32,000 nucleotides of DNA from Candidatus Saccharimonadota bacterium (GCA_963705375.1 OY970071.1:900001-932000); one strand, 5' to 3'. Positions 8,857 through 25,900 are shown, counted from the first letter of the stretch. The notes: a model not told the origin generated them from the letters alone. Program-made: numbers and translations.

Positions 8857-8905
8857 AAATATCTGGGTCAAGAGAGGTTTATATGCGGAGTTGAAAAGCC
8901 TGTGA

Positions 8906-9574: not shown

Positions 9575-9671
9575 AGAGTGAATTTCGTGCTAATCTATTT
9601 AAGTGTATCTGAGTAAACCTTGAGTTTACTTTTAGATAACTAGAATATACGATTTTTCACATAAGTTTACC

Positions 9672-9935: not shown

Positions 9936-9951
9936 CAGTAGTATTCAAAGC

Positions 9952-10125: not shown

Positions 10126-12776
10126 AGTAAACCCAGCAGCTTTAGCGTCTTCCTCTTGAATTTTGGCACCTTGCCATCCTTCAGGCATCTTTTTATGTAA
10201 CTATACTGCCATCTTTTCATTCCTAGCTGTTTTGCCTCTTCTTTTGTAAGTGTTTCTATCCTTTTCATTAACTTCTGTTCGAGATTTTTGTCATAGTAGA
10301 CATAATCATCACTTTTTACACCAACAACTTCCGCTTCTTCCAAATTATTAGACTCCTTACCACAGTAATTGATATTACTAATATTGATGTGCCTAGGACT
10401 GAGAATCCCAATTCCTCCCTGTTGTTTCTTCTCTTCGTGATTTACGTACTCAAAAAACAACTCATCGGTTGGTTTCCAATAAGCTTCCGTGTGTTTATTG
10501 TAGAGTTTACCATTTTTGTAGTCAATAAATGGCTGATATTTTACTGTACTATAATCTTTTGTAAAAGGCAACATTGGTATAATTGGTTCTCTTGTTATGC
10601 TGTCAAGACGATAACTTACCCCTAGGGTTATAAAATTTCGTGGTTTGATCTGGTGCTTAAGATCTTTGGCTTTATTGATTCTATTAAAACGTTTCATTAA
10701 AAATGGAGATGTAATAGCTAATTGTCCTGCTACAATGAAATTGTTATAATTAAACTCTATGTAATTGTCTTTTACAAGGCCACTATTGTATTTTATAATA
10801 TCCATCCAAAACTTCTCTTCCCATCCCTCCGGCATAGACTTTATCCCTCCCAATCCATGACTTGAATGTTTGAATATTGTAATCTTTCCATTTTCTTGCT
10901 TGTATAAACAATATCTCTTAGAACTTATTCCTAGAAATAGAACATTATCTAGTAGTTCTCCGTTGTTGCCTCTTTCTACTTTGAACATTTCAACATCTTT
11001 ATTGTAAGGATTAAGTGGTTTAAAAAATGCCTGAACAGGTTTCACTGCAGAAGGACTTATGAAGATCGCATCACAATCTTCATAAAAATACGACCAGCTG
11101 TTCCTCTCAACAAATACCTCCGTCATCGTTAAGACGAGCCTAGCGCCTGATGTTAGTAGAGTTGACACTAGGGGGTTAAACATCTTGCCATAATGCTCTG
11201 TTTTCTTTACCTTTGCTTTAAAACTTTCGAGCCCATAAACAGTCACCTCAGCGGATTCTAATTTTGTTGAGGTCTCTATTCCCACCCCGTACAATGAGTT
11301 AGCCATTATCTTACAGACATGCTGCTCGGTTCTCAGTTGCTCGTTATTGGGATCTAATTTCAGTTTTTCCTTTACTTCTAGTCTATGCTCTATTAGTAAT
11401 TTTATAAAATCAGTAGTTCTTGGATCTACACAAAGGCCAAAAAGTTTGGTTGGTTTTAGCGTTGGTTGTAATCCTACAGGTAAGAATCTATATGCCTTAA
11501 TTATCTTGGGTGCTTTTCCAGTTTTGATCTTAGATGCAATTATGTCTGCATAGGTGTACCATAGTTGTTTACCGCTTAAGTAAGCCATCCCTATGTTATG
11601 TGTGATCTTTCCTCCAAAACGGCTTCTTATTGGGAAATAATCTTCATTTAACTCTACTAATCCAATTCCTTGTAAATTAGACCAGACATTTTTGTTTGTT
11701 AAATCTTCAAGCTTTATATCATCTACAAAGTTCTGAAACTTGTCATCTTCTTTGACATCAATGTGATCGGCGATGATATATGACCACAATTGTTGTGAAA
11801 TTAGCTGGCTTGGATACATCGATAAATAGTCAATATAAGTGGCGTTTACGGTTTGCTTGCGCACATGAACAGCGACCTTAGCCCCATAAAAACTACTTAA
11901 TACGAAACCCAACATTGACCTTGAAAACTCTTTATTTTGATCCAAAAACGAATGTATGCCCATAGAGGTGCAGTATGCCTTTAGCAGACTCGCGGTTGAC
12001 GACAACTTATGCGGATAAAGTGGAATATCGTAATCATTTATTTTTCCCAGTAGTGCCTTGAATAACAGGTAGGAAATGTTTACGTCGTTAATATTGTACG
12101 ATATCAGCTTGGAATTCACCACACCATAAGTCTCAATCTTCGATTTAAGAGGAACTCCAAAATGTCGGCACGCCGATTCGAGCGAATGAGACGCATTTGT
12201 AAGCACCCATGTCAACGTACGTAAATCGCAAAAACTTCCCGAATAATTATTTCTTGTTTTTCTATTTTTGGAATAAGGAGATACAAAATTGATAAAACTT
12301 CGCTTAGAGTCCAAACTCTTCAAAAAAATTCTTGGTTTATATTTGTCATTTGAAATTTTCAGTGAGAAGGCCTCTCTATCATGTTTTTTTGAAGTGCCCC
12401 AACTTAAGCAGACCCTACAAAGATCGAATCCAATGTTAAATCCGCATATCAGGGCACGTCTATAAAAGCCCCAAGTTATCAGTTTATCAGAAAATTCGTC
12501 CCTGTTCATTAGCGGTATCTTATGTTCGATGGCATATGATTTCAATATGGCATATTCGTTTGGTTTTAAGTCACCGTGGAATAATCCTTTCTCAATAAGA
12601 ACATCATTATTCCAAACTCCATAATATCCTATCAACAAGTTTTGGTACTCGTCTACCGAACTCTCAACATCAAAGCAAAACACAGTATTGTTATCGTAAT
12701 AATCCTCTCTATTATACTGATTATGTGTCTTGCCGTCATCGACGTAACATCTCAGTATGGCATTCGCATTTTCCAT
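10122..12776 (-). CDS. polB: Casposon family-B DNA polymerase (protein-primed-type PolB by context)
   Basis: 884 aa. Exo I is FCFDVES and Exo II is YNINDV. Motif A is YIDYLSMYPS, motif B is KIMANSLYGV, motif C is the variant YEDCDAIF, and KxY is SKRYCLY. It is highly divergent from the host PolB at 1415-3862. Confidence 0.9.
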   Translation of the reverse strand: MENANAILRCYVDDGKTHNQYNREDYYDNNTVFCFDVESSVDEYQNLLIGYYGVWNNDVLIEKGLFHGDLKPNEYAILKSYAIEHKIPLMNRDEFSDKLITWGFYRRALICGFNIGFDLCRVCLSWGTSKKHDREAFSLKISNDKYKPRIFLKSLDSKRSFINFVSPYSKNRKTRNNYSGSFCDLRTLTWVLTNASHSLESACRHFGVPLKSKIETYGVVNSKLISYNINDVNISYLLFKALLGKINDYDIPLYPHKLSSTASLLKAYCTSMGIHSFLDQNKEFSRSMLGFVLSSFYGAKVAVHVRKQTVNATYIDYLSMYPSQLISQQLWSYIIADHIDVKEDDKFQNFVDDIKLEDLTNKNVWSNLQGIGLVELNEDYFPIRSRFGGKITHNIGMAYLSGKQLWYTYADIIASKIKTGKAPKIIKAYRFLPVGLQPTLKPTKLFGLCVDPRTTDFIKLLIEHRLEVKEKLKLDPNNEQLRTEQHVCKIMANSLYGVGIETSTKLESAEVTVYGLESFKAKVKKTEHYGKMFNPLVSTLLTSGARLVLTMTEVFVERNSWSYFYEDCDAIFISPSAVKPVQAFFKPLNPYNKDVEMFKVERGNNGELLDNVLFLGISSKRYCLYKQENGKITIFKHSSHGLGGIKSMPEGWEEKFWMDIIKYNSGLVKDNYIEFNYNNFIVAGQLAITSPFLMKRFNRINKAKDLKHQIKPRNFITLGVSYRLDSITREPIIPMLPFTKDYSTVKYQPFIDYKNGKLYNKHTEAYWKPTDELFFEYVNHEEKKQQGGIGILSPRHINISNINYCGKESNNLEEAEVVGVKSDDYVYYDKNLEQKLMKRIETLTKEEAKQLGMKRWQYSYIKRCLKDGKVPKFKRKTLKLLGLL

Positions 12777-13054
12777 TACATCTCCTGATAACGTTTAATT
12801 GGGTTTGAGAGGGAGTCTGCAAGCAGACGATAGTCCCTAATCCCTGTCTTGAAGTGTTTCTCAATGAAAATCTCCTGTATGCCTTGAAGGATGAAGGAAC
12901 TCTTCAGATTTTCAGGGTTGTTTTTCGAGTTCCAGGCATCATTCCAAAGCAGCTGGCGTATGCTAATGTGGATATGGCAATCAACACAGAGGGTGACTGT
13001 GATCTCGGAGTTGCACCTGCCCGCGATGTGGTGATTCTCTAGTCGATGAAGCAT
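12776..13054 (-). CDS. HNH endonuclease
   Basis: 92 aa with ENHHIAGR ... TLCVDCH (HNH core with a Cys/His zinc site). Its TAA stop overlaps the PolB ATG by 1 nt (TAATG). Confidence 0.8.
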   Translation of the reverse strand: MLHRLENHHIAGRCNSEITVTLCVDCHIHISIRQLLWNDAWNSKNNPENLKSSFILQGIQEIFIEKHFKTGIRDYRLLADSLSNPIKRYQEM

Positions 13055-13209
13055 CTCTTATCCCTCTTTTTTGGATTTTTAGCGAAAATTCGCTTTACGT
13101 CCGCTATTGCCTTATTCACAATGTCTCTATCCAGCTGTTCTTTCTCAGCAGCCAGGAAGAATCTCTGGGTTACTTCAGTGAGCAGTTCCTCGTTCTTCTT
13201 GGATAGCAT
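13039..13209 (-). CDS. Small hypothetical protein (56 aa)
   Basis: The internal Met of track ORF 13039..13347 begins 5 nt after the stop of the upstream 198-aa gene. The charged helical sequence MLSKKNEELLTEVTQRFF... looks coding, whereas the 5' part of the longer ORF overlaps the neighbouring gene out of frame. Confidence 0.45.
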   Translation of the reverse strand: MLSKKNEELLTEVTQRFFLAAEKEQLDRDIVNKAIADVKRIFAKNPKKRDKRCFID

Positions 13210-13213
13210 GCTC

Positions 13214-13810
13214 TCACGTAGTCTCGTAGACAGAGTAAAATTCTGGTTGCTCGATACGTTCATACATGGCGACCAGCACTTTTGGATTGGTTTCAAAAGC
13301 ATGGAAATCGCCACTGCTATCAACCACCCCCTGCCCATTGTAGCCATTAAGCGGCCCTAGCTCGCCATTTTGAAGGTAGGCCCTTACCGCGTCATGGTAC
13401 TGTGCGAGCCTTGTAGCCTCCCTAGAATCGCTTAATTCAACAAACACGTCCTTGCCTAGCTCGTTAGTACGCATGTTCCTAAGCAGGTGATCGTGCTTCT
13501 TGGGCTTAATTCTATTATTTTTCTTATATAATGCGATAGAAATATGCTTGCGAACCGTACGTGGATCAATTTTTGAATTTTTGCAACAAAGTGTGTAAGA
13601 GTCACCGGCCCTCATCATCGCCAATACCCGATATGACTTGTCTCTCTGAACTTTCTGGGCTATTGACAGCTCGTGCAAGTGTTTAACGTAGAGCCTGAGT
13701 TTGCGTCTCCTGTGCTTAGCCCTAACTTTGGGCTTAAATCTTCTCAAGCGGGATTGGGGGCCTGAGCCCCCTCTCCTGACCTTATATGTCAAGGTCGCCA
13801 TCATCTTCAC
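13214..13810 (-). CDS. Hypothetical protein (198 aa) with a highly basic N-terminus, possible HTH
   Basis: Long ORF inside the minus-strand operon. Its Arg/Lys-rich N-terminal 45 aa suggest nucleic-acid binding. No family recognised. Confidence 0.6.
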   Translation of the reverse strand: MKMMATLTYKVRRGGSGPQSRLRRFKPKVRAKHRRRKLRLYVKHLHELSIAQKVQRDKSYRVLAMMRAGDSYTLCCKNSKIDPRTVRKHISIALYKKNNRIKPKKHDHLLRNMRTNELGKDVFVELSDSREATRLAQYHDAVRAYLQNGELGPLNGYNGQGVVDSSGDFHAFETNPKVLVAMYERIEQPEFYSVYETT

Positions 13811-14207
13811 TTTCCTTCGCGTACTTCCCTATGTTTTGGGATAGTACGGTCAGCACCGCCTCATTCTCACTGCAGCCTAGCTTCTCGGCCATCTTGGAGA
13901 TTTGCCCCTTCAGAGCGTCAGGTACGCGAACATATCCTGCCGTTGCCGTGCTCTTGGTCGTGTTATCCTTCCAGTCCATCACTGAGACTAGAAGAGGCAC
14001 GGGGGACCACAGAACTAATTGATACTTTAAGAGCACCTTCAACCTTCTGTATGCCTGCTCCTTTTCTTGTTCTGAGGCGTCCCAGGAACCATCTAAAAGC
14101 TGCAGATAGCTCTGGATCATGTCTGTTACCTGCTGACTGCCTTGACGTTGGCCAGTTTGGTCTGGCTTTACCCCGGATTGCTCCGGTTCTGTCTTTATTG
14201 GTTGCAT
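13782..14207 (-). CDS. Hypothetical protein (141 aa) with a C-terminal ribbon-helix-helix-like segment
   Basis: The C-terminal GYVRVPDALKGQISKMAEKLGCSENEAVLTVLSQNI resembles an RHH (CopG/Arc) beta-alpha-alpha unit. GGTGA lies 6 nt upstream of the ATG. It is the first gene of the operon that ends with polB and the zinc ribbon. Confidence 0.55.
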   Translation of the reverse strand: MQPIKTEPEQSGVKPDQTGQRQGSQQVTDMIQSYLQLLDGSWDASEQEKEQAYRRLKVLLKYQLVLWSPVPLLVSVMDWKDNTTKSTATAGYVRVPDALKGQISKMAEKLGCSENEAVLTVLSQNIGKYAKESEDDGDLDI

Positions 14208-14300
14208 TTTTTCACCGATATACTTATTAGAACCTACTAATTACCGTCGAAGTCCTCTCAGCGAAGCGATTCGTCGATATCACTACGCTGAAAGAAGTGG

Positions 14301-14310
14301 GTATTTAAAA
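14301..14310 (+). promoter_or_regulatory. Candidate TATA box for the 373-aa/591-aa gene pair
   Basis: gtatttaaaa lies about 22-31 nt upstream of the ATG at 14332, which would give a leaderless or near-leaderless archaeal transcript. Confidence 0.3.
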
Positions 14311-14331
14311 CTCTGGAAACAATACATATTC

Positions 14332-15453
14332 ATGAAAAAATACCTGCCTGACTGGCGAAGGAAGCGAGTAGAAGAAAATAAAATGAGGATACTGACTTTG
14401 TTTTTCGAACAATCTGAAGAAATTGGCACAGACGGGACAATGAAACTTAAACCACTATCAATGAAATGGAGCGACATTAAAAAATTAGCGCTGAAAGAAG
14501 GCATAAAAAGCGATTCTGGTCTTAGCAAAATTCTGTTTGCTTTAAAGAATGAGGGTAAACTTTTACATGATGAGCACCTGCAATGGAAACCTACGATTAT
14601 GGCTATAGAAGAGGCACAAAAGACCATTTGGTATATAGTCAAAACACTACAAGAGTTAAAAGCCAACGAAGCCTATTATTTGCATGGTGGAGATCCTTTT
14701 GGATCATTTAAATTCGGTTTCAGTACCGATAATATAATCGATTTTAGGTTGGATAATGCCGTTGCCAAAAACGCTGAGCTAATGTCCCCGAAAATCAACG
14801 TCATAACCGCCATGACTAAAAGCTTGCAGGATTATGCTTTTGACTTACTGATAGACAATATTAAAAATAATACCCTAAATGTCAACGATTTTAAGAGTGG
14901 CAAGACTATACAAGCCATAGAGATAGATTGGGATAAATTCAGGGAGGAATTTAAACGAATCCAACGCTTTATTGAGGACATCAATTCCCCAGACAACACT
15001 CAAGATGATGTACTTTCTGATCCCCTACTGAACTTGGATAGCCAAAGACGGGACATATTAAACAACTTATGGTTTCTTGTCTACTTCTCATCTAAGATTG
15101 GAGATGCCAAATTTAAAAGAAAACTAACATTTTTCTTGAATATATTCACACAAAGTGAAGATTTCTATGAAATCACTAAAGTAAGTTCCAAATCACTCGA
15201 AACGCTTATACGCTATCTAGGAACGAACAAGGATCCTTTGAAAGACCAAGCGCTGGTAAAAGACCTAATAGTACTGGATTCCACTGGATTTGGATATACG
15301 GACATTTCGGGTAGATACAGCATAGCGATGATGTTATCCAAGTTTGGTGACTCTTCATTTATGGAAAAGGTTGAGGAATTCGATAACAGACTAAGAGAAT
15401 TAAAAATCAAAAGGTTAAATGAGAAAATAGTAGCCTCAAAAACAGAGTCATAG
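14332..15453 (+). CDS. Hypothetical protein (373 aa), N-terminal wHTH-like segment, no catalytic motif seen
   Basis: Clean AT-rich ORF. The N-terminal RILTLFFEQ...LSKILFALKNEGKLL resembles a winged helix. A co-oriented ORF follows 38 nt downstream. Confidence 0.65.
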   Translation: MKKYLPDWRRKRVEENKMRILTLFFEQSEEIGTDGTMKLKPLSMKWSDIKKLALKEGIKSDSGLSKILFALKNEGKLLHDEHLQWKPTIMAIEEAQKTIWYIVKTLQELKANEAYYLHGGDPFGSFKFGFSTDNIIDFRLDNAVAKNAELMSPKINVITAMTKSLQDYAFDLLIDNIKNNTLNVNDFKSGKTIQAIEIDWDKFREEFKRIQRFIEDINSPDNTQDDVLSDPLLNLDSQRRDILNNLWFLVYFSSKIGDAKFKRKLTFFLNIFTQSEDFYEITKVSSKSLETLIRYLGTNKDPLKDQALVKDLIVLDSTGFGYTDISGRYSIAMMLSKFGDSSFMEKVEEFDNRLRELKIKRLNEKIVASKTES

Positions 15454-15491
15454 TTGAGTAACTCAGGGAAAACATAAAAATTGGTGATAGC

Positions 15492-17267
15492 GTGGAAGAT
15501 AAAAAGGAAGCAGCTGGTTGGCCATCTTCATATGACTTTTTCTATTATGATTCGAAGGTATTTGAAAAGGCCCTTTCCATTAGGAAAAAGGTATTGGAAA
15601 ATGCGAATTCAAACTTGATTTACGGATATATTTACTTGTTAGAGCTGCTGATTAGCGCAATAGCCCAACACGTAGAAGACCTTCCAAACAATATGCAAAA
15701 ATTTGAGATTATTCATTGGGGTAGGTTCGATTTAGGCAGCCGAGAAATGCAAGAAATCGCAAAGAATGATGAATATTTCAGATTGGTTCTTGTCTTGAAT
15801 AGAAGACGTAGAAACTTGTCTAACTTGCTGCATGCTCTGCTGGGAGCCGACAATCCAGATATAAGGAAGGGATTGGAAGTCTCTCTAGAAGCACTTGATG
15901 TTTTAATTAAGGAAATAAATTCCAAAGTGATAGAATTTTATAATCCCAAGAGAATAGGAGAAGTAGACGAAGTTAACGAGAGACTGATGATACTTAACTG
16001 GTTTCTCAACACCGTTTTATACGAAGGTCCTAGACCTTTCTTTAGCACAATGACTGATTCTATTGCTTTTAGTTACAGACCGCTCCCTCAGTATCTTGAC
16101 GGCTTTAAGTTTTGTTTGGAAGATATCTTAATTTGGTTAACTAGTAGTAAGAGTAATGAAACAATAGAAAGTAATCTCAAAGAATTTCAAACTTGGAAAG
16201 ATTCACATAGTTTCTGGGTAACTATGGTCGATGCATTCACTCGTGGCATTGAACTTAAACGACTTTTTGAGATAACGATTCCAGAAGAGCAATCCAAGAA
16301 TCTGATTGATGTTAAAAAAATAACTGATAAACATCAGCTAAATGTGCTTTTCAGAGGCAGAGGAATAAAGGCAATAACTGTTTTTGAAAATATTTTGGAA
16401 AGCGATAATGATGTGTTAGAAAGATTATTCACAGATGCATTGCAAGGAAATCTGCTTTTGAATGAACCCAAAGCTGAAATAATCGAGTTTAAGGAGTTGA
16501 AAAACTACAAAGAAGGATGGGGATGGGAGTATCACTATACTTATGCTTTATATGTTCCAATGCACGGATTTATTGGTGACGCCTCGAGTTGGCTGATCTT
16601 CCCTAGCTTGACAGTTGAAACGGACCAAGAGGACGATTATTTCAGAACAAACTTGCAAGACATTGTAAAAGATCATGAGGATGAGATACAATTTAGTGAA
16701 TATGAGATCAAAACAGGACTAATTGAGAGTTACATAGCTGAAAAGGATCGTGCAACAATTCGAAAATTGTGGGTTGAAAGAAGATTAGATTCTAGCAGGG
16801 GGTTGCTCGCTGAATTTTTAGCTTATTTCTATCTCTGGGATGGGTATGGCGCCAAACTCATTGAATTTCATAAAGAAGTGGACAGAACTGAAATTGATGT
16901 TGTTGGAGAAGATGACACTTCTCGTTATATCATACAGGCTAAAAATTCGCTCACCCTCAGAAAGGAAAAATTAGTAAAAGAGATAGAACAAATCACAAAA
17001 CAATTTGCAATAGTTGAGAAAAAGTATACTGTTTCAGATAAGTCTACAAGAAAAATACTTTTTGTGGTGGATTGGGCTTGGGATGCGGAAGATCCTGGTG
17101 AGGATCGTGACGAAAATGTTATAGAGGCATATGGAGTTGCTCAGCAAATGCTAGGAAAAGACAATATTCAGCTTGTTATCTACGCTGATATAAAGAATAT
17201 CGTGAGCCGTAGGCATAAGGATTTCGTTGAAAAATCAAACAGTGTATTTGATTTAATCGATAAATAG
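15492..17267 (+). CDS. Hypothetical protein (591 aa) with a C-terminal PD-(D/E)XK-like nuclease core
   Basis: GTG start. Residues ~436-500 (nt ~16797-16992) read LLAEFLAYF...EIDVVGEDDTSRYIIQAKNS, giving E441 ... D469 ... Q482-x-K484, the pattern of restriction-endonuclease-fold nucleases. The ~430-aa N-terminal region is unassigned. Confidence 0.6.
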   Translation: MEDKKEAAGWPSSYDFFYYDSKVFEKALSIRKKVLENANSNLIYGYIYLLELLISAIAQHVEDLPNNMQKFEIIHWGRFDLGSREMQEIAKNDEYFRLVLVLNRRRRNLSNLLHALLGADNPDIRKGLEVSLEALDVLIKEINSKVIEFYNPKRIGEVDEVNERLMILNWFLNTVLYEGPRPFFSTMTDSIAFSYRPLPQYLDGFKFCLEDILIWLTSSKSNETIESNLKEFQTWKDSHSFWVTMVDAFTRGIELKRLFEITIPEEQSKNLIDVKKITDKHQLNVLFRGRGIKAITVFENILESDNDVLERLFTDALQGNLLLNEPKAEIIEFKELKNYKEGWGWEYHYTYALYVPMHGFIGDASSWLIFPSLTVETDQEDDYFRTNLQDIVKDHEDEIQFSEYEIKTGLIESYIAEKDRATIRKLWVERRLDSSRGLLAEFLAYFYLWDGYGAKLIEFHKEVDRTEIDVVGEDDTSRYIIQAKNSLTLRKEKLVKEIEQITKQFAIVEKKYTVSDKSTRKILFVVDWAWDAEDPGEDRDENVIEAYGVAQQMLGKDNIQLVIYADIKNIVSRRHKDFVEKSNSVFDLIDK

Positions 17268-17315
17268 TAGCTTAAGGCAAGTTAACATAAAACTCTGATA
17301 AACTTCTTTTGTGCT

Positions 17316-19589
17316 TCATAATTCCTTTACCTTACTAAGTACTTCATCGACATTATCATTAGTGACCAAGAAGAAGTGTAATTTTCCATTACCCAAGTGT
17401 TCCCATTCTTTTGCCACTTGCACTTTATAGGTAGTGTCTTCGTTAGTGACTAGATGCTCCCCTTTCCACTCTAATACCAAGATGTTACCCTTTTCTGTAA
17501 CCGCAACGAAATCCGGATAAAATTTATTTGGTTTCCAACCCTGCAAGTAAAATGGATCTTTCTTCTCTCTGTTTCTTATCCAAAATCGGATATTAGATAG
17601 TGTATCTAAATCAAGTCTATTTATAAAGGTGTTTTCTTCTTTATTTAATTTGTCAATCTTCTTGTAATAATTTTTATTAAATTCTTGTGGCAACTCCTCT
17701 TCCAGCATTATCTTATCAGAGAACTTTTCAAATGACTTTGTTTTGATTTTGCCTTCTTTCACATATTTATCGAAATTATTTTTGGCATGGTTTACTAGTA
17801 TCTTATTTATTGCACTGTCTAGTTTGTCAAGAAGTAGATAACGATTAACAGACAAATCCTGAAGAGTGTACCCTTTTATATTATTTAAGGCCTTCTCCAA
17901 GAATGCTACCCTATCCTCTTTGTCAAGCATCGTAAATCTTAACCGTTTATCTAGCCATTGTATCAACTCGCTCTTAGAACAATTTTTATCCCGGTAAGTT
18001 ATTTTTAGCACTTTTTGTGCTCCTCTTATCCATTTGTCTCCTTCTTTTATATCGATGATTGCTCTTCCATCGCTGTCATAATGTACTTTAAAATCAATTT
18101 TGGCATCTTGCTTCGCCAATTCAAAATTTTCGCCTATTAATTCCTCAAAAGATAGTTCTTCATCTTCGTAAGCCATCATTGGAGGAGCAAAGTCTTCACT
18201 AACTCTTCTTTCAACCTCAAATTGATATTGCTCTTGTCTATCTGCTGCATTAATTAGATCAAGTCTACTATAGCCGTTGCTTTCTAATCCTGATATAATC
18301 TCTGTAGCGGCCTCATTAAAATTCTTAGCTGAGGCGAATATATAGCTCCGATTTAGATCTTCATTTTCTTTTCTCGAAGCAGAAGGCAATCTCATAATTC
18401 GTCCTATAATTTGTTCAACAGCAATTCTAGAGCCGATATTCGCAACAGAGATTAGGATATAAGCATAGGAACAATCCCATCCTTCAGCCAAAGCATTAAC
18501 TGTAATAATATACCTTATTTTGCATTTATTACCAAACAAATCAATATTTTCTAGGTCATTCTGTTTTGAGGTTTTAATTGCTATTTCTTCCTCTTTGACC
18601 ATACCATTGCATTCTTTTAGAAGAAATTCCTTGATCTTACCTACTGTCACTTTCTTTTCGCTTTCCTTCTCTTGTTCTGCCTGTAATAATGTGATTGGCC
18701 TTATGCGTTCCCCCTTCTCTTTTTTTGTTAATTTCTCTAATTCCTCCCGTCTTAATACGCCTTGCTTAATTGCATTTTGCCATTGCGTATGACTTTCTAA
18801 TACTAAAGGCAGCTTTACCATGTTTTCTTCTTTCAATTCAGAAGAACATATTCTCATTAAAACATTACTCTCTGATCTAGGCGTAGCAGTATACTCTATT
18901 ACAAAACTTGGATTTAGGCCTTTCAAAAACTCAATTGATAACAAAGTTTTAGCTCTATGACCTTCATCTATAACGATCAAGGGGTTGCTAAATCTAATCA
19001 CATTAGCCAGAGATTTTATTACTCCGGACTCGTCTTTTTCTAATATATTAGAATCTTCTATATTCTCAAAATGACCTAATAATTCGCCATTTTCTTTATA
19101 AACTTTATATTTATTCTGTAAGGCCTTTTCTTTTCTAAATGCATCTAGACTGGAAACTATAAGGCAAAGATTATTTTCTACGTCATCTTTTTTTATCCTT
19201 AAAGCTTCCTCGTTTGAAAATATTTTTATATTATTATCAAAAGACTCATCGAGTACTTTTCTGTGCATGTCATTCCTATCTTTGAACTTTTTTAATGTTT
19301 GACTTTTAATTGCCTCAGAAGGAACAAACCACATCACTATTCCTTTCCCCATTTTTTCTTTTAGAAAGGAGTCCATAATCTGGCATATAGAATGGCAGCC
19401 GACTAAGGTTTTCCCACCACCTGTTGGTATTTTTATACAAATAGAAGGAACATCGTCGCCAAAGAAATCGCTTTTATACGGTTGATTTGTTATATACATA
19501 TAAGCATACGCTGGTTTTTGTTTTTCTAACTCTTTAAGGAACTCATTAATTTTATCTAAGGCCTTTTGTTGATAAATTTTGAGCTTCAT
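17316..19589 (-). CDS. res: Type III restriction enzyme, Res subunit (SF2 helicase plus C-terminal PD-ExK nuclease)
   Basis: 757 aa. Motif I is PTGGGKT, motif II is VIDEGHR and motif III is TATP. The C-terminal YPDFVAV...VLEWKG is a PD...ExK nuclease motif. Its ATG abuts the mod stop (TAAATG). Confidence 0.88.
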   Translation of the reverse strand: MKLKIYQQKALDKINEFLKELEKQKPAYAYMYITNQPYKSDFFGDDVPSICIKIPTGGGKTLVGCHSICQIMDSFLKEKMGKGIVMWFVPSEAIKSQTLKKFKDRNDMHRKVLDESFDNNIKIFSNEEALRIKKDDVENNLCLIVSSLDAFRKEKALQNKYKVYKENGELLGHFENIEDSNILEKDESGVIKSLANVIRFSNPLIVIDEGHRAKTLLSIEFLKGLNPSFVIEYTATPRSESNVLMRICSSELKEENMVKLPLVLESHTQWQNAIKQGVLRREELEKLTKKEKGERIRPITLLQAEQEKESEKKVTVGKIKEFLLKECNGMVKEEEIAIKTSKQNDLENIDLFGNKCKIRYIITVNALAEGWDCSYAYILISVANIGSRIAVEQIIGRIMRLPSASRKENEDLNRSYIFASAKNFNEAATEIISGLESNGYSRLDLINAADRQEQYQFEVERRVSEDFAPPMMAYEDEELSFEELIGENFELAKQDAKIDFKVHYDSDGRAIIDIKEGDKWIRGAQKVLKITYRDKNCSKSELIQWLDKRLRFTMLDKEDRVAFLEKALNNIKGYTLQDLSVNRYLLLDKLDSAINKILVNHAKNNFDKYVKEGKIKTKSFEKFSDKIMLEEELPQEFNKNYYKKIDKLNKEENTFINRLDLDTLSNIRFWIRNREKKDPFYLQGWKPNKFYPDFVAVTEKGNILVLEWKGEHLVTNEDTTYKVQVAKEWEHLGNGKLHFFLVTNDNVDEVLSKVKEL

Positions 19590-21146
19590 TTAATACACCT
19601 TTACCTCATAAGGAATCTGTTTGAATTGAATTTTATACTTCTCTAATGTCTTCTCGTCGATTAGACATTTATCAGCGTAAATTACCCTCTTTTTACTGTC
19701 TTTTTGAAGTTTCTTTAAGAATTCCTTATTCAGTACATTCTTACCTCTTTCTTTGAAGATAAGATAATATTCGGTTTCATTATATTCACCAATGAAATTT
19801 CCTGACATCGTTCCTTTATCAATATTAGTATTAGTCTCGGTAAAGTAAATGTATGTCGCCAACTGATCAAATGAGCATTCTTCATCAATTTGACCGTATT
19901 CATTGAATAGCGGTTTATCTAATTCACAATATTCAAAACCATCTTTATAATCGTATTTTTTAATAGCTCTTTTAATTCTCTCTGCAGTAATATCTTTTGC
20001 AATGCCATCTTCAAGCTCAACTAAAATAAATTTCCTATGCCCACCATCTGCTTTGTTTAAATCTAATACAGCATTTCCAGTTGTGCCTGAACCGGCAAAA
20101 GAATCCAAAACAAGGTCTTCTTTATTTGAAGTGAGTTTAATTATTCTTTTTAATAATTCAACGGGTTTGGGTGTTGGGAAAGGATTAGCTTCCTCTGGAA
20201 ATAATACTTTTATTTCTCTTTTTGCATCTTGTGTGTGCCCAACCTCTTTATATTCCCAAAGAGTTAAAGGTGTAATTCCAGGACTTACTTCACTCAAAAA
20301 GAGTTTTGGACCCCACATGCTTGCTCCTTCCTTTCCAAACCATATTCGGTTATCTTTCTTCAGTTCCTCAAAACGTTTTTCACTATACAACCAACTTCTT
20401 CCTTTTGGTGGAAGTAATTTTCTTCCACTAGGAGTAACTATCTCATAAATATTTTTTTCGATTGCCGGACCTACAGAAGGATTGCCTAACTTCCATAGAC
20501 CGCGAGGATCGTTATCAGGATTTTTATAGTCTTTTAGCTGTTTTTCTGTCCTCTCAAGTTTATTTATTGAAAATGAATCTAAGTTCTTCGTATATGCTAC
20601 AATATAATCGTGATTCTGGGAAAAATATTTATTCAAACTTACAGGTGCATAAGCTCTTTGCCAGATTATAGTCGCTAGGAAATTCTTTTCTCCAAATATT
20701 TCATCCATGATTAAACGTAAATTATGCACTTCATTATCATCTATTGACACTAGAATCGCTCCGTCTTCTTTTAAAAGTTGGTACAGCAGTTTCAATCGTG
20801 GATACATCATGCACAGCCATTTGTCATGCCTACATAAATCTTCAGATTCATTTCCTACCACTTTTCCTAGCCATTTTTTAATTTTAGGTGAATTTACTTT
20901 ATCATTATAAACCCACCCATCATTTCCAGTGTTATATGGAGGATCTATATAGATGCATTTTACTTTTCCTTGATAATACGGCATCAGTGCTTTTAGTCCC
21001 TCTAAATTATCTCCATGAATAATTAGGTTCTGAGAATTTTCATCAACAGAAAGCGATTTTACTTTTTTTAACAGTCTAAAAGGAACCTCTTTGTCATGAT
21101 TTACAACGGCGTCTTTACCAATCCAGTCTAAAATAGGCATAAACAT
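19590..21146 (-). CDS. mod: Type III restriction-modification DNA methyltransferase, Mod subunit (beta-class N6A/N4C MTase)
   Basis: Motif IV IDPPYN lies near the N-terminus and motif I DSFAGSGTT about 280 aa later, the beta-class order. The N-terminal PILDWIGKD is typical. The start is ambiguous among 21152 TTG, 21149 GTG, and 21146 or 21140 ATG. Confidence 0.88.
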   Translation of the reverse strand: MFMPILDWIGKDAVVNHDKEVPFRLLKKVKSLSVDENSQNLIIHGDNLEGLKALMPYYQGKVKCIYIDPPYNTGNDGWVYNDKVNSPKIKKWLGKVVGNESEDLCRHDKWLCMMYPRLKLLYQLLKEDGAILVSIDDNEVHNLRLIMDEIFGEKNFLATIIWQRAYAPVSLNKYFSQNHDYIVAYTKNLDSFSINKLERTEKQLKDYKNPDNDPRGLWKLGNPSVGPAIEKNIYEIVTPSGRKLLPPKGRSWLYSEKRFEELKKDNRIWFGKEGASMWGPKLFLSEVSPGITPLTLWEYKEVGHTQDAKREIKVLFPEEANPFPTPKPVELLKRIIKLTSNKEDLVLDSFAGSGTTGNAVLDLNKADGGHRKFILVELEDGIAKDITAERIKRAIKKYDYKDGFEYCELDKPLFNEYGQIDEECSFDQLATYIYFTETNTNIDKGTMSGNFIGEYNETEYYLIFKERGKNVLNKEFLKKLQKDSKKRVIYADKCLIDEKTLEKYKIQFKQIPYEVKVY

Positions 21147-21162
21147 CACCAATTATATATTC

Positions 21163-22128
21163 TTATTCAAGTTGCCTTATGTATTTCGTTAAAACTTTTG
21201 AGAATATGCTCATTTTTTCAATTCCCCACTTTATAAGTTCTTCTTTTTCCGTTTCGCTAAGTTTTGTTATAGGACCACTTGTTTGTTTAGAAATCTCAAT
21301 ACGTGAGGCGCGTGCATCCGGTAGTTCCTGAAAATCTAGTCCAAATCCAAGTTCTTTTTCAATCACGTCATGCATTTGTTCCAGTTCTTTAAGGATTCTT
21401 TTATTTTCTTCTCTATCATGTACATCAATATAGAGTTCAATTGCAAAATGCCACCCATTAGCCATCCTAAATAGCCAAGAATAAGAGAATCCAGATTTTC
21501 CTGCACCGAATGAAAGCCAGTGTTGAGGCGACGCCTTTACCTTATTCCAAGAAGGATTCTGCTGCTTGTATTTATCAGCTAACTGTGTGAAGAATTCTAA
21601 TCTGACTTTCTGGAGTCTTTGCTCAGCCTCACTTAGCACTTCTTTAGATACCTCTTTCTGATACTCATTCGGTTTTACAACAACTACTAATTCAGGGGCG
21701 GGCAACGAATCCCCGATCTTCTTGACTTCTATTTTTATTCCAAACAGACTCGGCCCATCTTGCTTTATATTGTTATTGAGGTAATCTAGCGTCGCGATAT
21801 GTTCTTCTCTAAAGGTTTCTGCAATCCATATCCCTATTTTTGCCCCCTTACCTGACAGATAAGTTAAGAGTTTTCCTAAATGATCATGGTTTGTCTCACC
21901 ATATTGATTTTCTATAACAACCATGTCGTCCGTGCCTGCAATCTTCCCTACAAGATCTGCCGAATAATTTCCGACGTTAACTTCATTGCTTACATCTTCT
22001 ATATCTTCCCCGATTAATGCAGATATTTTAGAGATATTCTCTTTTACCCACGGAGTAAAATCTCTTTCTTCATTTGGCCAAACAGACTTTATGTCAATAT
22101 GTTCAATTTTTCCTAACTCCTTTGCCAT
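21163..22128 (-). CDS. PD-(D/E)XK-like nuclease N-domain fused to a DUF4268-like C-domain (by recollection of the family)
   Basis: The N-terminal ...YSADLVGKIAGTDDMVVIENQYGETNHDHLGKLLTYLSG is the signature I associate with DUF4268-family proteins found in R-M loci. The ATG at 22128 is preferred over the TTG at 22161. It lies immediately upstream of mod-res on the same strand. Confidence 0.6.
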   Translation of the reverse strand: MAKELGKIEHIDIKSVWPNEERDFTPWVKENISKISALIGEDIEDVSNEVNVGNYSADLVGKIAGTDDMVVIENQYGETNHDHLGKLLTYLSGKGAKIGIWIAETFREEHIATLDYLNNNIKQDGPSLFGIKIEVKKIGDSLPAPELVVVVKPNEYQKEVSKEVLSEAEQRLQKVRLEFFTQLADKYKQQNPSWNKVKASPQHWLSFGAGKSGFSYSWLFRMANGWHFAIELYIDVHDREENKRILKELEQMHDVIEKELGFGLDFQELPDARASRIEISKQTSGPITKLSETEKEELIKWGIEKMSIFSKVLTKYIRQLE

Positions 22129-22278
22129 ATACTTCCCCTTTCCTACAGTATCCACTAACAATAATTGAACATTAACTCTTTATAACTTCACCCAGAAATA
22201 GTCGGCCATTTGTATAGCGTTGCCATAGCGCATTTTGTGTACTTCTTTTATGCAAGTATAACTTATTATACCTTTATA

Positions 22279-23457
22279 TCAGCCTAACTGACTAATTTTT
22301 GATTTTACCTTAGGATATATTCTAATCCTTTTACCTTCTCTTATATTTCGTTGTATGTACCAAACTGTGTTGCGTGCGAGGCCAAGTCTTTTCCTCTTTT
22401 CAGGGGTCATATTTAGTATCATATCTCGTAGTGATTCAGTATCCTGCCTCTTTAGCTTTACAAGCGGTATGTCGAACTCCACGTCAGCGCCAGTCAATAT
22501 GCTCTTCGCGAAACTGGCTATATTTTCATATAATATGTTGCGGTAGCTATAATTCTTGCCTCTGAAGTTTGCGGTTGAATTGAAGTTAGTTTTCACCTTC
22601 TCGATCAGCATTCTGACCCCGGACTCCCTTACTCTGATATTGTAGTTTTCAGTTACCAAAAAGTCTGTTTTATTGATCTTTCTTTCTTCTAGAAGCTGAA
22701 TGACACTTAGATCTATGAGCCATCTGAAGGTTTCCTGCAAATCGTAAACCAAACTAGACCGGCTTGCCTTTAGCTCATGCACGAAGCTGATAGAGTTGTC
22801 AAGGCCCAAGGCACCAATGTCCCTCCGAAGCTCGGACTCCAATAGAGAATAACCAAGGTTGAGAAGTGCATTGCACTCGGAACTTGCGTTCATATTCCAT
22901 GATTGGCGTCTGCTATTCCTTCCGGCAAAGTTGAATTCTGGATAGAGCTTATCAAAAATCAGCTTTAAGTTAGCCCAATAAGCTATGGCCTCGTTCCCTT
23001 CCGCCGTGAGTAGTGAACCATAGTTGTTCAAATGCCCTAAATCCAACTTGTCAGCCCTTATCTCAGGATAATAATTAGACAGTTCATTAAGCAGGTTTCT
23101 GGACTGCCTTACCTTTTCCTTAATGATGCTCATCCCTATAGTGGCTCGCCTTTTACTGTCAGTATAAGCCTCATACTGTTTAAGCCTCAGCTTGCCCGAA
23201 ACAGGCTCATTGGGCAATGTTACGCTTAGAAGGTTGCCATTCCAGTTCAGTAATGTTAAGGCAATATCGTGCTTCATAAGCCACCTCATCGCCTCAAAAG
23301 TTATGCTTCCGGTATAACTGTCCAATACTATACCGTCATAAAGGATCTGATGGGGATTGAACTCTAGCCTGGTATTTTCCAGCTTATTGACAATAACGAG
23401 CTTTCGCTTATCTACGCTTATGAAGTTACCGAATCCGCTAATCAATAATGGGTTCAT
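22279..23457 (-). CDS. cas1: Cas1 family integrase (casposase) with C-terminal HTH
   Basis: Cas1 signatures are present: AEGNEAIAYW (Glu), NALLNLGYSLLE, and FVHELKASRSSLVYDLQETFRW (His, with Asp at +12 and Glu at +15). The basic C-terminal HTH is RKRLGLARNTVWYIQRNI. The ATG at 23457 is preceded by aGGTGA; the track start at 23487 would lie inside the putative TATA box. Confidence 0.9.
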   Translation of the reverse strand: MNPLLISGFGNFISVDKRKLVIVNKLENTRLEFNPHQILYDGIVLDSYTGSITFEAMRWLMKHDIALTLLNWNGNLLSVTLPNEPVSGKLRLKQYEAYTDSKRRATIGMSIIKEKVRQSRNLLNELSNYYPEIRADKLDLGHLNNYGSLLTAEGNEAIAYWANLKLIFDKLYPEFNFAGRNSRRQSWNMNASSECNALLNLGYSLLESELRRDIGALGLDNSISFVHELKASRSSLVYDLQETFRWLIDLSVIQLLEERKINKTDFLVTENYNIRVRESGVRMLIEKVKTNFNSTANFRGKNYSYRNILYENIASFAKSILTGADVEFDIPLVKLKRQDTESLRDMILNMTPEKRKRLGLARNTVWYIQRNIREGKRIRIYPKVKSKISQLG

Positions 23458-23488
23458 GTTTTTCACCTGGTAGAATATCGACGTCAAA

Positions 23489-23500
23489 GTATATAAAAAG
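23489..23500 (-). promoter_or_regulatory. Candidate TATA box for cas1
   Basis: The minus strand reads ctttttatatac, 32-43 nt upstream of the cas1 ATG at 23457 and just inside the right TIR. Confidence 0.35.
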
Positions 23501-23528
23501 GTCCAAACAACGAGGATAGTCTAGTTTA

Positions 23529-23604
23529 CCCTCGTCCTGTCTAGCCGATTGAAATCGATCGGTTAATCAGGCAAAATCGATTGAAATGGAGGCTTTAATA
23601 TATA
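23529..23604. repeat. Right terminal inverted repeat (~76 bp, or 81 bp if CCCCC 23605-23609 is included) with two subterminal units
   Basis: The reverse complement reads TATATATTAAAgcCTCCATTTCAATCGATTTTGCC...GATTTCAATCgGCTAGACAGGACGAGGG, matching the left TIR. It is one ~32-bp unit shorter than the left TIR. Confidence 0.88.
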
Positions 23605-23622
23605 CCCCCGCATATGTTTGCT
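23605..23622. repeat. Right copy of the 18-bp direct repeat (TSD / attR)
   Basis: cccccgcatatgtttgct is identical to 8728-8745. Confidence 0.9.
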
Positions 23623-23641
23623 ACTGATAACAAGTGATCTC

Positions 23642-24427
23642 GTGGCTGTTGCTGGGAGCAACTATCTGCTGATATTCGACGTCGACGGTGTCCTCAGAGA
23701 CTCTTCCATCGCGTTGGACGAAAGCAATAGGCGGGTTTTTGCGGCGTTAAACAAAGAATACTGCTTTCGTGTAGAAGATACCTGGCACATGCGCGGTTTA
23801 GGTAGGTACAACAGATCGGTCCAATGCCTTAAGGCCCTTCTGGCTCTAACCAAATCAAAACAAGATCTAGGACAGATACTTGCTCACAGAGACGCAGAAA
23901 AACGTCTTGACGAAATCTGTGAAGAGCAGCTCACAGACCAGGATCTCAAGGACTTGGAAAGGACTCATTGGATATACCACAAATTTTTTGATTCCGTCGA
24001 AGCAAAACCTTTGATAAAGACATATCCTTATGTAAAGGACGTTCTTGATTTGCTCAAGAAAAACGGCTGTACTCTATCCATATTCTCCAACTCCAGCAAG
24101 GCTGCAATGGATAGGGATCTGCCTGGGATTGGATTGGAAAAGTTCTCCCTTATGCTCTCAGGTGAAGATGTAAAAAACCAAAAACCGTCAGGGGAAGGCA
24201 TAACGAAGATAATGGAACAGCTAAACTACAATCCCTCAAAAACTTACTACGTTGGCGATGCAGTGATCGATGTGCTTGCTGCAAGAGATGCCGGATGCAA
24301 AGCGATTTCAGTATTATCTGGGATGGGCTTGCGAATGCATCTTGAGGCCGCAAAACCCGATCTCATCTTCGATGACTTGAAGGCCGTAAGTGACTATTTC
24401 ACTATTGAGGATACAGCACGCGAATAG
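23642..24427 (+). CDS. HAD-superfamily hydrolase (phosphoglycolate phosphatase-like, subfamily IA)
   Basis: Motif I is LLIFDVDGVL, motif II is SIFSNSS, and a KPSGEG lysine region and motif IV YVGDAVIDVLAARDAG are present. The GTG at 23642, preceded by agtgat, is preferred over the track's TTG at 23618, which lies inside the TSD. Confidence 0.8.
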   Translation: MAVAGSNYLLIFDVDGVLRDSSIALDESNRRVFAALNKEYCFRVEDTWHMRGLGRYNRSVQCLKALLALTKSKQDLGQILAHRDAEKRLDEICEEQLTDQDLKDLERTHWIYHKFFDSVEAKPLIKTYPYVKDVLDLLKKNGCTLSIFSNSSKAAMDRDLPGIGLEKFSLMLSGEDVKNQKPSGEGITKIMEQLNYNPSKTYYVGDAVIDVLAARDAGCKAISVLSGMGLRMHLEAAKPDLIFDDLKAVSDYFTIEDTARE

Positions 24428-24504
24428 ATGCTCGTATTGTTAAAATCTCATCCCAGCATCATAGTATTGCCTTGCTCTGAGGGCTCTTTCTACACTTCGT
24501 TTTG

Positions 24505-25293
24505 ATGGTCAGAATACGCTACACACTTTTTATACTGTCCTGCTCATATCTAACCGACGTTATGATGAGACAAAAAACACCTCTGATGAATCGCGTCATG
24601 TTTGGCATTATCTCATTTCTTTTTATCTCCGGGTTCTTGGAGATGGTGTATCATTATACAAGCTTCCGCGGTGCCTTGCCCTATGCCATCTGGATAACCC
24701 TTTTCGGTTTGGCCATAGTGGGGTTCGCCTTGACAACAGCAAATGGCGATATAAAACTGAGGCTCCATAAGATCTGGACGCCTATAGGCTTTTTGCTAAT
24801 TGCCTGTGCCGTGCTCTCTGTCATTTTCGTAGACATGCCTCGTTCCAATGGGCTTGTTGATGCTGTCTTAAACAATAGCACCGAGGCGATACCCTATGTT
24901 ATAGGGTTCGGACTTTCCTTGGCGTTTGTAGACACAGAGGTCTTTTACAAATACGCCTATTATTTTGGAGTTCTTACTCTCCTCAACATCTTGCTTATTC
25001 CAGTTTATGCGGTAGCGTACATACCAAATCTCATCTCCGGCGCTCATGTAGATTTCGAAGTCTCGATCGATGTTCTCTGGTTCCTCAGCGGGCCGATTTT
25101 TGCTTATTATATAGCCAAGAAGCTCAAAGCAGACCGACCGACCCGTAGGGAGATCTACCTTGCGATCGGAAAATTCGTTGCAGCCACCATCCTCTTGATA
25201 ATTGTTGGCTTTATAGTGGGCAAGATGCTACCTGCAAATAGCTGGCCTTCTCACTGGCTTTCTACAATGAACCAGTTCCATCCGCAATCATAA
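24505..25293 (+). CDS. Integral membrane protein (multi-pass), function unknown
   Basis: ~262 aa with several long hydrophobic segments. The ATG at 24505 directly follows the track's TTG at 24502. Confidence 0.6.
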   Translation: MVRIRYTLFILSCSYLTDVMMRQKTPLMNRVMFGIISFLFISGFLEMVYHYTSFRGALPYAIWITLFGLAIVGFALTTANGDIKLRLHKIWTPIGFLLIACAVLSVIFVDMPRSNGLVDAVLNNSTEAIPYVIGFGLSLAFVDTEVFYKYAYYFGVLTLLNILLIPVYAVAYIPNLISGAHVDFEVSIDVLWFLSGPIFAYYIAKKLKADRPTRREIYLAIGKFVAATILLIIVGFIVGKMLPANSWPSHWLSTMNQFHPQS

Positions 25294-25354
25294 AGACTAC
25301 TACAAGCAATTCTCTATCTCTTCGATACTGCTTTTTGCATCATTATTTCTGACT

Positions 25355-25864
25355 TCAATGTCTGCGGAACAAGCTTTCACAATGATGCCTTGAGTCATTG
25401 TGCAATAATTTTTCTAGCCGCTCGTCCGTATCTCTATTGGTGGTTACTTTTTCACGGGCTGCATGCGCATTTCCTCCTAACCTAACGCCTTTAGCAATAC
25501 ATGCGCTGGTAACTTTTGCCTCTTCACATATGATGGCTCCCTCTTCAATGTCTCCGTCGATGATAAGTGCCTTATCACGAATTCGTGCATATGATTCTAC
25601 CATTGTGCTTCCCAGAATCTGTGCTTTGTCCGTTACAAGGGCGCTTACGTCTATGTATGCTATTGTAGATACGGCCGCAGTTGATTCTACGAATCCGCCT
25701 ATTGTTTCATCAGGGTTTATGTGCCTTACAAATTCCCTATCTCCTAGCTTTGCACGTAGAGTACTTCCATCAAGCCCTTGCAATTCCTCAACAGAATCTA
25801 CAAATATCGGGGTGTCTTTCTTCGATGAGTCCATGTCTTTTGCCTGGATTGATTTTTCTTTCAT
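25355..25864 (-). CDS. Hypothetical protein (169 aa), possibly beta-helix/hexapeptide-repeat-like
   Basis: The central region shows a loosely periodic pattern of aliphatic and small residues (ILGSTMVESYARIRDKALIIDGDIEEGAIICEEAKVTSACIAKGVRLGGNAHA). The overlapping plus-strand ORF is Ser-rich and of low complexity, so it is judged a shadow ORF. Confidence 0.5.
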   Translation of the reverse strand: MKEKSIQAKDMDSSKKDTPIFVDSVEELQGLDGSTLRAKLGDREFVRHINPDETIGGFVESTAAVSTIAYIDVSALVTDKAQILGSTMVESYARIRDKALIIDGDIEEGAIICEEAKVTSACIAKGVRLGGNAHAAREKVTTNRDTDERLEKLLHNDSRHHCESLFRRH

Positions 25865-25900
25865 GCTATCCCTTTAGGGTTTCTTAAAATTTCCAGATAT

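Follow-up and report, generated by a model that had tools for sequence, protein, structure and literature searches.

Casposons have mainly been studied as ancestors of the CRISPR adaptation machinery, and mobile elements with restriction-modification (R-M) systems are commonplace. Within a 32,000-nt stretch of DNA recorded under Candidatus Saccharimonadota bacterium (GCA_963705375.1 OY970071.1:900001-932000; this whole stretch is hereafter called the window), a preliminary description had placed a complete Type III R-M operon between the casposase gene cas1 and the polymerase gene polB of a casposon, preceded by a gene for a nuclease-like protein (herein gene 1). The locus raises the question of whether gene 1, mod and res are indeed casposon cargo and, if so, whether they make up one defence system or two. 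Taking all the evidence together, we consider it likely that the element is a casposon with a Type III R-M system and a separate PDC-S11 nuclease, probably arranged in one transcription unit. The three minus-strand open reading frames (ORFs) were found where they had been reported (21163-22161, 19590-21152 and 17316-19589), and all the motifs quoted for Mod, Res and gene 1 were recovered in them.

Boundaries of the casposon and its host chromosome

The features that define the element were as follows (TSD, target-site duplication; TIR, terminal inverted repeat).

8648-8736, plus strand: tRNA-Leu (GAG), the integration target (ARAGORN; Rfam tRNA, 52.8 bits)
8732-8745: left TSD copy, 14 bp, CGCATATGTTTGCT (exact repeat)
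~8746-8859: left TIR, opening with GGGGGTTATATTAAA (inverted repeats; TRF period 31 x 2.3; end-to-end alignment)
10122-12776, minus strand: casposon family B DNA polymerase (PolB), 884 aa (Pfam DNA_pol_B, 2.6e-4, under the curated cut-off)
22279-23457, minus strand: cas1 casposase, 392 aa from the homologue-supported ATG (Pfam Cas_Cas1, 1.6e-50; TIGR00287, 1.5e-48)
~23526-23608: right TIR, with two subterminal units (inverted repeats; alignment of both ends)
23609-23622: right TSD copy, 14 bp, CGCATATGTTTGCT (exact repeat)

The sequence CGCATATGTTTGCT formed a perfect 14-bp direct repeat with its sole occurrences at 8732-8745 and 23609-23622, the left copy overlapping the 3' end of tRNA-Leu, and an Rfam scan returned a tRNA as its sole match. 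The TIRs were imperfect, with arms of 50-72 nt that were 72-82% complementary. The span between the two TSD copies (window 8746-23608, 14.9 kb) is a complete, intact casposon of the family-2 type, with a GC content of 37% against 48% in the flanks. Since the TIRs and the TSD enclose all the R-M genes, the earlier assignment of a complete mod-res pair as casposon cargo between cas1 and polB was borne out. Further genes, among them that of a 591-aa cargo protein, separate the R-M genes from polB.

Furthermore, a related Micrarchaeota contig (L106; loci outside the window are designated by such L numbers) was syntenic with the window up to the 3' end of tRNA-Leu, and synteny came back only at window position 26007. 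Because this contig is without the element between syntenic flanks, it represents an empty site; with 68-77% nucleotide identity to the window it belongs to a different species, and the comparison is not one of within-population polymorphism. The perfect TSD, in turn, speaks for the insertion being recent. Those homologues of the flanking host PolB that carry a name were from Micrarchaeota, and, as judged from them, the host chromosome is that of a member of the Micrarchaeota (DPANN), a tiny symbiotic archaeon.

In the casposase, the residues E153, H227, D239 and E242 were invariant in the homologue alignment. No CRISPR repeat array was found within 8600-23700, and no cas2-like family was detected among the scanned ORFs with Pfam and TIGR/NCBIfam profiles.

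The mod-res pair

The Type III pair comprised two adjacent genes, and here as elsewhere start codons were chosen from homologue alignments and ribosome-binding sites.

19590-21140, minus strand: mod, Type III methyltransferase of the beta class, 516 aa (PADLOC MTase_III, 1.8e-188, full length)
17316-19589, minus strand: res, Type III restriction subunit, 757 aa, with a superfamily 2 (SF2) helicase and a C-terminal PD...ExK motif (Pfam ResIII, 4.7e-15; PADLOC REase_III, 3e-84)

The longest mod ORF extends over 19590-21152 (minus strand), and the homologue-supported ATG lies at 21140 (MPILDWIGK...), preceded by the Shine-Dalgarno sequence GGTGAT. Mod matched Pfam N6_N4_Mtase (2.5e-46) and, among PDB sequences, the Type III Mods 6k0w (1e-60) and EcoP15I 4zcf_A (1e-49), and its motifs followed the beta-class order, namely DPPY (aa 70), target recognition domain (TRD) and FAGSGTT (aa 352; ORF numbering). 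Among three casposon-borne copies the TRD was only 18-35% identical, compared with 80-90% for the ends of the protein; this divergence suggested that the casposon Mods probably have different recognition sequences.

In Res, we located PTGGGKT (55-61), DEGH (208), TATP (234), PD (692-693) and EWK (707-709), and helicase motifs I, II, III and VI (QIIGRIMR) as well as the PD-EWK residues were invariant in 21 homologues. The protein belongs to a family of ~755 aa with more than 100 homologues of equal length at 63-87% identity (the nearest being 87% identical), which occurs mainly in DPANN archaea and bacteria of the candidate phyla radiation; a search of IMG/VR viral contigs with Res as the query gave no match. 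The best PDB fold match (Foldseek) of an AlphaFold2 (AF2) model of Res was EcoP15I Res 4zcf_C (E = 5.5e-10).

At the junction TAAATG, the res ATG (19589) directly follows the mod TAA with the reported gap of 0 nt, and the order of mod before res was the same in all homologous loci. No hsdS-like specificity ORF was found in the ORF list or by PADLOC. Neither gene contained a frameshift or truncation, and alignment, which the preliminary description had named as the check for degeneracy, found both proteins full length with every catalytic motif kept. Phase variation of mod was considered as well and was ruled out, as the gene contains no simple-sequence repeat. On sequence grounds, Mod-Res is thus a complete and intact Type III R-M system, of which the activity is a predicted one.

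Gene 1 encodes a separate nuclease candidate

21163-22128, minus strand: gene 1, 321 aa, with an N-terminal domain of PD-(D/E)xK fold and a C-terminal DUF4268 domain (Pfam; PADLOC PDC-S11)

The longest ORF of gene 1 (21163-22161, minus strand) had been described as coding for 322-332 aa, and with the start set at the ATG at 22128 this was corrected to 321 aa. The protein matched Pfam DUF4268 (PF14088, 2.3e-29) and, over the full length, the PADLOC model PDC-S11 (PDLC04911, 1.5e-97, ORF aa 12-330), and carried the motifs ADLVG (68), ENQ (84) and HLGKLLTY (94; ORF numbering). Its AF2 model consisted of two domains (pLDDT 89.7), and the fold matches of the N-terminal one, namely SfsA, EndoMS/NucS, Bax1 and CdiA-CT, were all of the PD-(D/E)xK type (probability ~1.0). 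The residues E49, D58, E73-N-Q75 and K86 were invariant. The profile match and the fold matches thus agree with the earlier reading of this gene as a nuclease-like domain joined to DUF4268.

The same description had grouped gene 1 with the R-M genes, and this grouping did not stand. Its closest homologue (78%) is found in the genome of another archaeon, where it adjoins Fic and AbiEii genes and neither Mod nor Res is encoded in the vicinity, and the R-M systems of other casposons are without gene 1. Because of this solitary homologue and these other casposons, gene 1 is best read from its sequence context as an independent single-gene defence candidate and not as a Type III subunit; its family has thousands of members and is listed in PADLOC as a single-gene candidate.

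As to its function, DUF4268 has been linked to the GmrSD Type IV enzymes (PMC4619093), and also occurs in MdgA and MdgB, modification-dependent antiphage nucleases, the activity of the former being abolished by the substitution E77A (PMC12366544). PDC-S11 and MdgA/MdgB share an N-terminal nuclease domain and a C-terminal DUF4268 within one polypeptide as well as a defence-island context, and the conserved E73 of gene 1 has a position similar to that of the catalytic E77 in MdgA as far as the two can be compared by description. Gene 1 is therefore probably a Type IV-like nuclease. PDC-S11 itself is a computational candidate, and an MdgA-like modification dependence of gene 1 is presumed by analogy. 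The res gene of a sister Mod-Res operon (L103-105) is directly followed by the gene for a GmrSD Type IV enzyme, which is consistent with a pairing of R-M and Type IV-like enzymes.

A conserved leader interrupted by gene 1

22129-22278, minus strand: conserved leader of ~150 nt between cas1 and the defence genes (nucleotide conservation)

The ~100 nt that follow the cas1 stop codon were conserved with the cas1-mod intergenic regions of L008/L009, L094/L096 and L097. Their conservation was ~80%, as estimated by eye from two alignments (A4 and A5), whereas the Cas1 proteins of the elements sharing the leader were only ~57% identical. The homology ended ~15 nt before the ATG of gene 1 and returned after its stop codon with the Shine-Dalgarno sequence and start of mod (ATTGGTGATnTTTATGCC). 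Since the leader homology is interrupted by gene 1, the coding sequence of the latter was, by this comparison, inserted into the conserved mod-res leader, and the three genes would therefore probably share a promoter just downstream of cas1.

Within the leader (22150-22278, minus strand) we noted an AT-rich, TATA-like box at ~22255-22270, AAGGTATAATAAG, as well as a short hairpin of the form GCG...CGC, GCGCTATGGCAACGC, both of which were common to the casposon mod-res copies examined (L008/L009, L094/L096 and L097). RNAalifold applied to the conserved leader returned only two 3-bp helices and no covariation. The region 22129-22278 is a probable promoter and 5' untranslated region of the operon.

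The single transcription unit proposed in the preliminary description accordingly remains probable. The spacing given for it was in part revised: the gap between gene 1 and mod, quoted as 10-16 nt, is 22 nt with the homologue-supported mod start (10 nt with the longest ORF).

The tight spacing (22 nt and 0 nt) and the one common leader could also mean that gene 1, mod and res form an integrated three-component system, in which the DUF4268 nuclease serves the Type III enzyme as an accessory subunit or alternative effector, and Mod-Res copies of the same family that have an ORF between mod and res (145 aa in L098-102; 262 aa in L103-105) point the same way. We nevertheless regard such an integrated system as improbable, considering that the 78% homologue of gene 1 has no Mod or Res nearby, that thousands of its homologues constitute a single-gene PADLOC candidate family, and that the nearest Mod-Res pairs (Res 87%, 77% and 75% identical) are without gene 1. 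A likely reading of the arrangement is one transcription unit with two independent defence modules.

Recurrence in related casposons

The preliminary description had proposed a survey of other casposons for R-M cargo, and such cargo was found to recur next to cas1 within one Cas1 clade. The termini of the metagenome loci were found by the motif GGGGTTATATA, which is valid only inside the clade; TIR detection based on BLAST failed for most loci.

The closest Res homologues also sit between cas1 and a casposon terminus. In L008-10 (Res 87%), cas1 is followed by mod, res and then the casposon terminus. The loci L011-13/L019 (Res 77%) represent a complete casposon of 12.2 kb at tRNA-Glu, with mod-res lying between perfect TIRs of 48 nt. 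In L094, L095 and L097 (Res 75%), the terminus TATATAACCCC comes right after res and is followed by a tRNA gene; L094 starts inside cas1. We also considered whether L094-97 (the P0134 loci) were chromosomal and unrelated to casposons, which was ruled out by the Cas1 C-terminus or its remnant and the flanking casposon terminus. In a neighbour-joining tree of Cas1, all R-M-bearing elements and that of the window fell into one clade, in which at least four further distinct elements carry R-M in the equivalent position.

In L018, a member of the same clade, the segment between cas1 and the terminus at 15067 (11207-15067) was occupied by an AIG2-like gene and a Type II R-M system with two Type II methyltransferase genes (D12-class and MT-A70) and a Type II restriction endonuclease gene. 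An identical Res protein was linked to divergent cas1 genes in L008 and L009, which suggests module exchange. Of the seven Res clusters examined, three contained this Mod-Res family at loci that showed no casposon features.

Several further observations were made on these loci. At 5440-5475 of L009 (also in L008 and L010), two termini face each other ~14 bp apart, TATATAACCCC...GGGGTTATATA, which indicates tandem casposons sharing a target site. The locus L096 (4918-9730) is decayed, with a Cas1 C-terminal remnant of ~84 aa, an intact mod-res pair and a right terminus with one mismatch, beside a threonyl-tRNA synthetase gene; from its sequence, the R-M system seems to outlive the casposon core there. 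The ORF between mod and res in the non-casposon copies was REase_II-like in L098-102 (145 aa) and a 262-aa one in L103-105, and the enzyme after res in L103-105 was a GmrSD + DUF5655 Type IV enzyme.

Considering the above, there might be a DPANN casposon clade with a dedicated cargo slot between cas1 and the TIR, in which R-M and innate-immunity modules are swapped via the cas1-leader junction, so that casposase and defence operon are linked physically and perhaps also in their regulation. This is a tentative idea that we think rather doubtful at present. If true, such a clade would be a living analogue of a proposed step in the origin of CRISPR-Cas, namely the joining of a casposon to an innate-immunity locus, and the slot would offer methylation specificities a way to spread among symbionts with reduced genomes.

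Weighing of the alternatives

An interpretation that fares about as poorly as the integrated system is that the R-M genes do not restrict, either as decaying or silent passengers or as a methyltransferase-only epigenetic switch. Cargo varies widely among casposons, of which many are inactive (PMC4779613), and one relative, L096, is a remnant in which most of cas1 is gone. In the window, however, Mod and Res are full length with intact catalytic motifs, Res is 87% identical to its nearest homologue, neither a frameshift nor a phase-variable simple repeat in mod is present, and the perfect TSD argues for a recent insertion, so that we hold this interpretation to be unlikely.

It has been proposed that the nucleases and helicases of casposons may assist integration, excision or replication (Krupovic et al. 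2014, PMC4046053), and R-M genes repeatedly adjoin cas1 and a terminus; Res and the other nucleases could hence serve excision, replication or end processing of the casposon instead of defence. We judge this very unlikely, because three of the seven clusters have this Mod-Res family outside casposons, the slot holds membrane proteins in L001 and L015 and a Type II R-M system in L018, and the TRD varies as expected of a sequence-specific R-M system. Finally, that the R-M genes are a host genomic island merely adjacent to casposon genes, for which adjacency and the ~2.4 kb of non-syntenic DNA just outside the right TSD could be cited, is already contradicted and has next to no probability, given that the genes lie within the TIRs and the perfect TSD, the whole block is missing from L106, and the mod-res pair of a second casposon is likewise enclosed by perfect TIRs of 48 nt.

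The reading that we prefer, a casposon with a Type III R-M system and a separate PDC-S11 nuclease, also has to be set against a number of points that weigh on the other side. For Res, the AF2 model is moderately confident (pLDDT 68.7), phmmer and a profile of 21 Res sequences found no Type III match among PDB sequences, and the PADLOC Res models cover the N-terminal ~440 residues of the protein alone; the enzymatic activity of Mod-Res is deduced solely from intact motifs. For gene 1, the fold matches of the N-terminal domain are weak (E values of 6e-4 to 1e-2, template modelling scores of ~0.25-0.35), and its link to MdgA consists of the domain description and a similarly placed glutamate only. 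A scan for sigma-70 promoters and terminators was at chance level, the model being of bacterial type and unsuited to an archaeon. As to recurrence, the clade members L001 and L015 have membrane proteins and no Type III genes in the slot, and Type III Mod or Res was found in none of the 33 out-of-clade casposon loci (those with at least 4.3 kb downstream of cas1); the Type III system is therefore optional cargo. The inversion of the cas1-R-M block relative to its relatives means that some rearrangement has occurred.

Under the reading of a casposon with two separate defence modules, the Cas1 casposase would have inserted the family-2-type element at the 3' end of tRNA-Leu (GAG) in a Micrarchaeota chromosome, and the element would carry a small defence island between its conserved core (the PolB, HNH, 198-aa and 373-aa genes) and cas1. 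Gene 1 would have been inserted in the 5' leader of mod-res, and the three genes would be transcribed from one promoter downstream of cas1. The TRD of Mod would select an asymmetric site, of which Mod would methylate one strand, and in the Mod2Res complex ATP would trigger sliding and the C-terminal PD-ExK nuclease would cut DNA with unmethylated sites. Gene 1 would then attack modified phage DNA that escapes the R-M system, and the 591-aa protein with a nuclease motif, described below, may be a third defence component. The expected benefit would be defence of the host and hence retention of the element. The gene identities, the intact motifs, the limits of the element, the empty site, the insertion of gene 1 and the recurrence of R-M beside cas1 in one Cas1 clade are shown by the sequences; in this scheme we infer the enzymatic activities, the co-transcription, the modification dependence of gene 1 and the benefit of the cargo.

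The addiction function that had been suggested for the R-M system is a conjecture. Type III enzymes need two unmethylated head-to-head sites, and are thus weaker candidates for post-segregational killing than Type II enzymes.

Comparison with known systems

The overall organization of the element was in good agreement with that of the family 2 casposons (AciBoo-C1, those of Methanosarcina mazei and NitNCS1-C1), which likewise have Cas1, PolB, HNH and helix-turn-helix (HTH) genes, TIRs and variable cargo. In particular, the TSD agrees with that described for the M. mazei family 2 casposons (PMC4779613) in its length of 14 bp, its initial CGCA and its location at the tRNA-Leu 3' end, and the tandem insertions seen in L008-10, relatives of the element in the window, are known in this family too. 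The window differs from the family 2 casposons in its Micrarchaeota (DPANN) host and in its cargo of a complete Type III R-M system with a PDC-S11 nuclease, and from its closest casposon relatives in the inverted cas1-R-M block.

Casposon cargo has been described as genes for DNA manipulation that might be of use to the element itself. Published casposon cargo includes solitary methyltransferases (AciBoo-C1 and HenMar-C1), one putative restriction endonuclease (MetLum-C1), and OLD, HEPN, NERD and Cas4 nucleases (PMC4779613, PMC4046053). A complete R-M system is not described as cargo in these casposon papers (PMC4779613, PMC4046053), and a search of the papers available to us found no report of casposons in Micrarchaeota.

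The R-M pair resembles the Type III enzymes EcoP15I and EcoP1I in the position of mod before res, in the beta-class N6-adenine Mod with a central TRD, and in the SF2 ATPase and C-terminal PD-ExK nuclease of Res, the best fold match of the model being EcoP15I Res. In contrast, Res had no sequence similarity to EcoP15I Res that was detectable by phmmer or hmmsearch, and it is shorter (757 aa versus 898 positions in the nearest PADLOC REase_III model). Pipolins are comparable in that they are PolB-encoding integrative elements at tRNA genes with exchangeable defence cargo, and unlike the casposon in their use of tyrosine recombinases and a primer-independent PolB. A PADLOC survey of 48 casposons reported a defence-gene density several times below that of pipolins (PMC11551731); since casposons were defence-poor in that survey, the casposon clade of the window is atypical. 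At least three, and perhaps four, of the ~14 genes of the casposon in the window are given to defence.

Each component is ordinary and comes from a known family, and what is new is a clade-recurrent R-M cargo variant of a known element. Casposons may accordingly be possible vehicles of defence and of methylation specificity in genome-reduced DPANN archaea, in which the R-M cargo may stabilise the casposon or outlive it. The element also provides a case in nature of Cas1 and an innate-immunity effector together on one mobile unit.

Other genes and features of the element

15492-17267, plus strand: 591-aa cargo protein of a rare family (C-terminal PD-(D/E)xK-like motif E441, D469, Q482-x-K484)
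12776-13054, minus strand: HNH-type small nuclease, 92 aa, a conserved family 2 gene (position and homology)
13214-13810, minus strand: 198-aa conserved casposon gene (tblastn)
14332-15453, plus strand: 373-aa conserved casposon gene (29-33% identical homologues in L011-13 and L018)
9672-9935, plus strand: 87-aa winged-helix (wHTH) protein, the conserved casposon HTH gene (weak HxlR match, E = 0.0012)
8906-9574, minus strand: 222-aa ORF inside the casposon (ORF list)

The element had been said to encode four separate nuclease-type domains, and this held in part: that of the 591-aa protein depends on a conserved E...D...QxK pattern and a non-significant match to Hjc (E = 0.54). Its family comprised only 51 clusters in 1.84 billion representatives, with Y351, W367, T466, D469 and K484 invariant. 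From these residues, the 591-aa protein is possibly a defence-related nuclease. A 46%-identical homologue in L108 adjoins a gene for an OLD-family nuclease and an Endonuclease_7 gene.

As for the core genes, the casposon PolB aligned end to end with those of related casposon loci at 31-50% identity (42-46% for the nearest elements), and the HNH gene was 31-54% identical to the gene at the same position in most related casposons. The HNH protein had no Pfam match, and its pattern HH...N...CxxCH was read directly from the sequence. The 198-aa gene had tblastn matches in nearly all related casposon loci, between the HNH gene and cas1. A homologue of the 373-aa gene lies directly upstream of cas1 in the relatives, and a 36%-identical homologue of the wHTH protein adjoins cas1 in the casposon L011. 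The 222-aa ORF had no match in Pfam, NCBIfam or PADLOC.

With regard to gene order, the block of cas1, gene 1, mod and res (window 14332-23487) is inverted relative to that of relatives such as L011 (5715-12268). The window has cas1 next to the TIR and res directed towards the interior, convergent with the 591-aa gene; L009, L011 and L094 have res next to the TIR and the 373-aa homologue ahead of cas1. In the casposon of the window, the wHTH gene has also moved, to the PolB end. The segment 13055-14331, with ORFs of 198 and 141 aa, had a GC content of 46.9%, near the host value, and the rest of the element one of 33-42%.

At the termini, subterminal units of ~31 nt containing TCCATTTCA occur three times in the left TIR (8764-8835) and twice in the right (23546-23590), the left TIR being longer by one such unit, and these units are probably casposase-binding sites. 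Outside the right TSD, ~2.4 kb of the window (23623-25900) is missing from L106, where tRNA-Leu adjoins a GHMP kinase gene. This segment, with a GC content of ~44%, encodes a haloacid dehalogenase (HAD) hydrolase, a 263-aa membrane protein and a 169-aa ORF, and could represent either lineage-specific DNA or what is left of another insertion at this tRNA.

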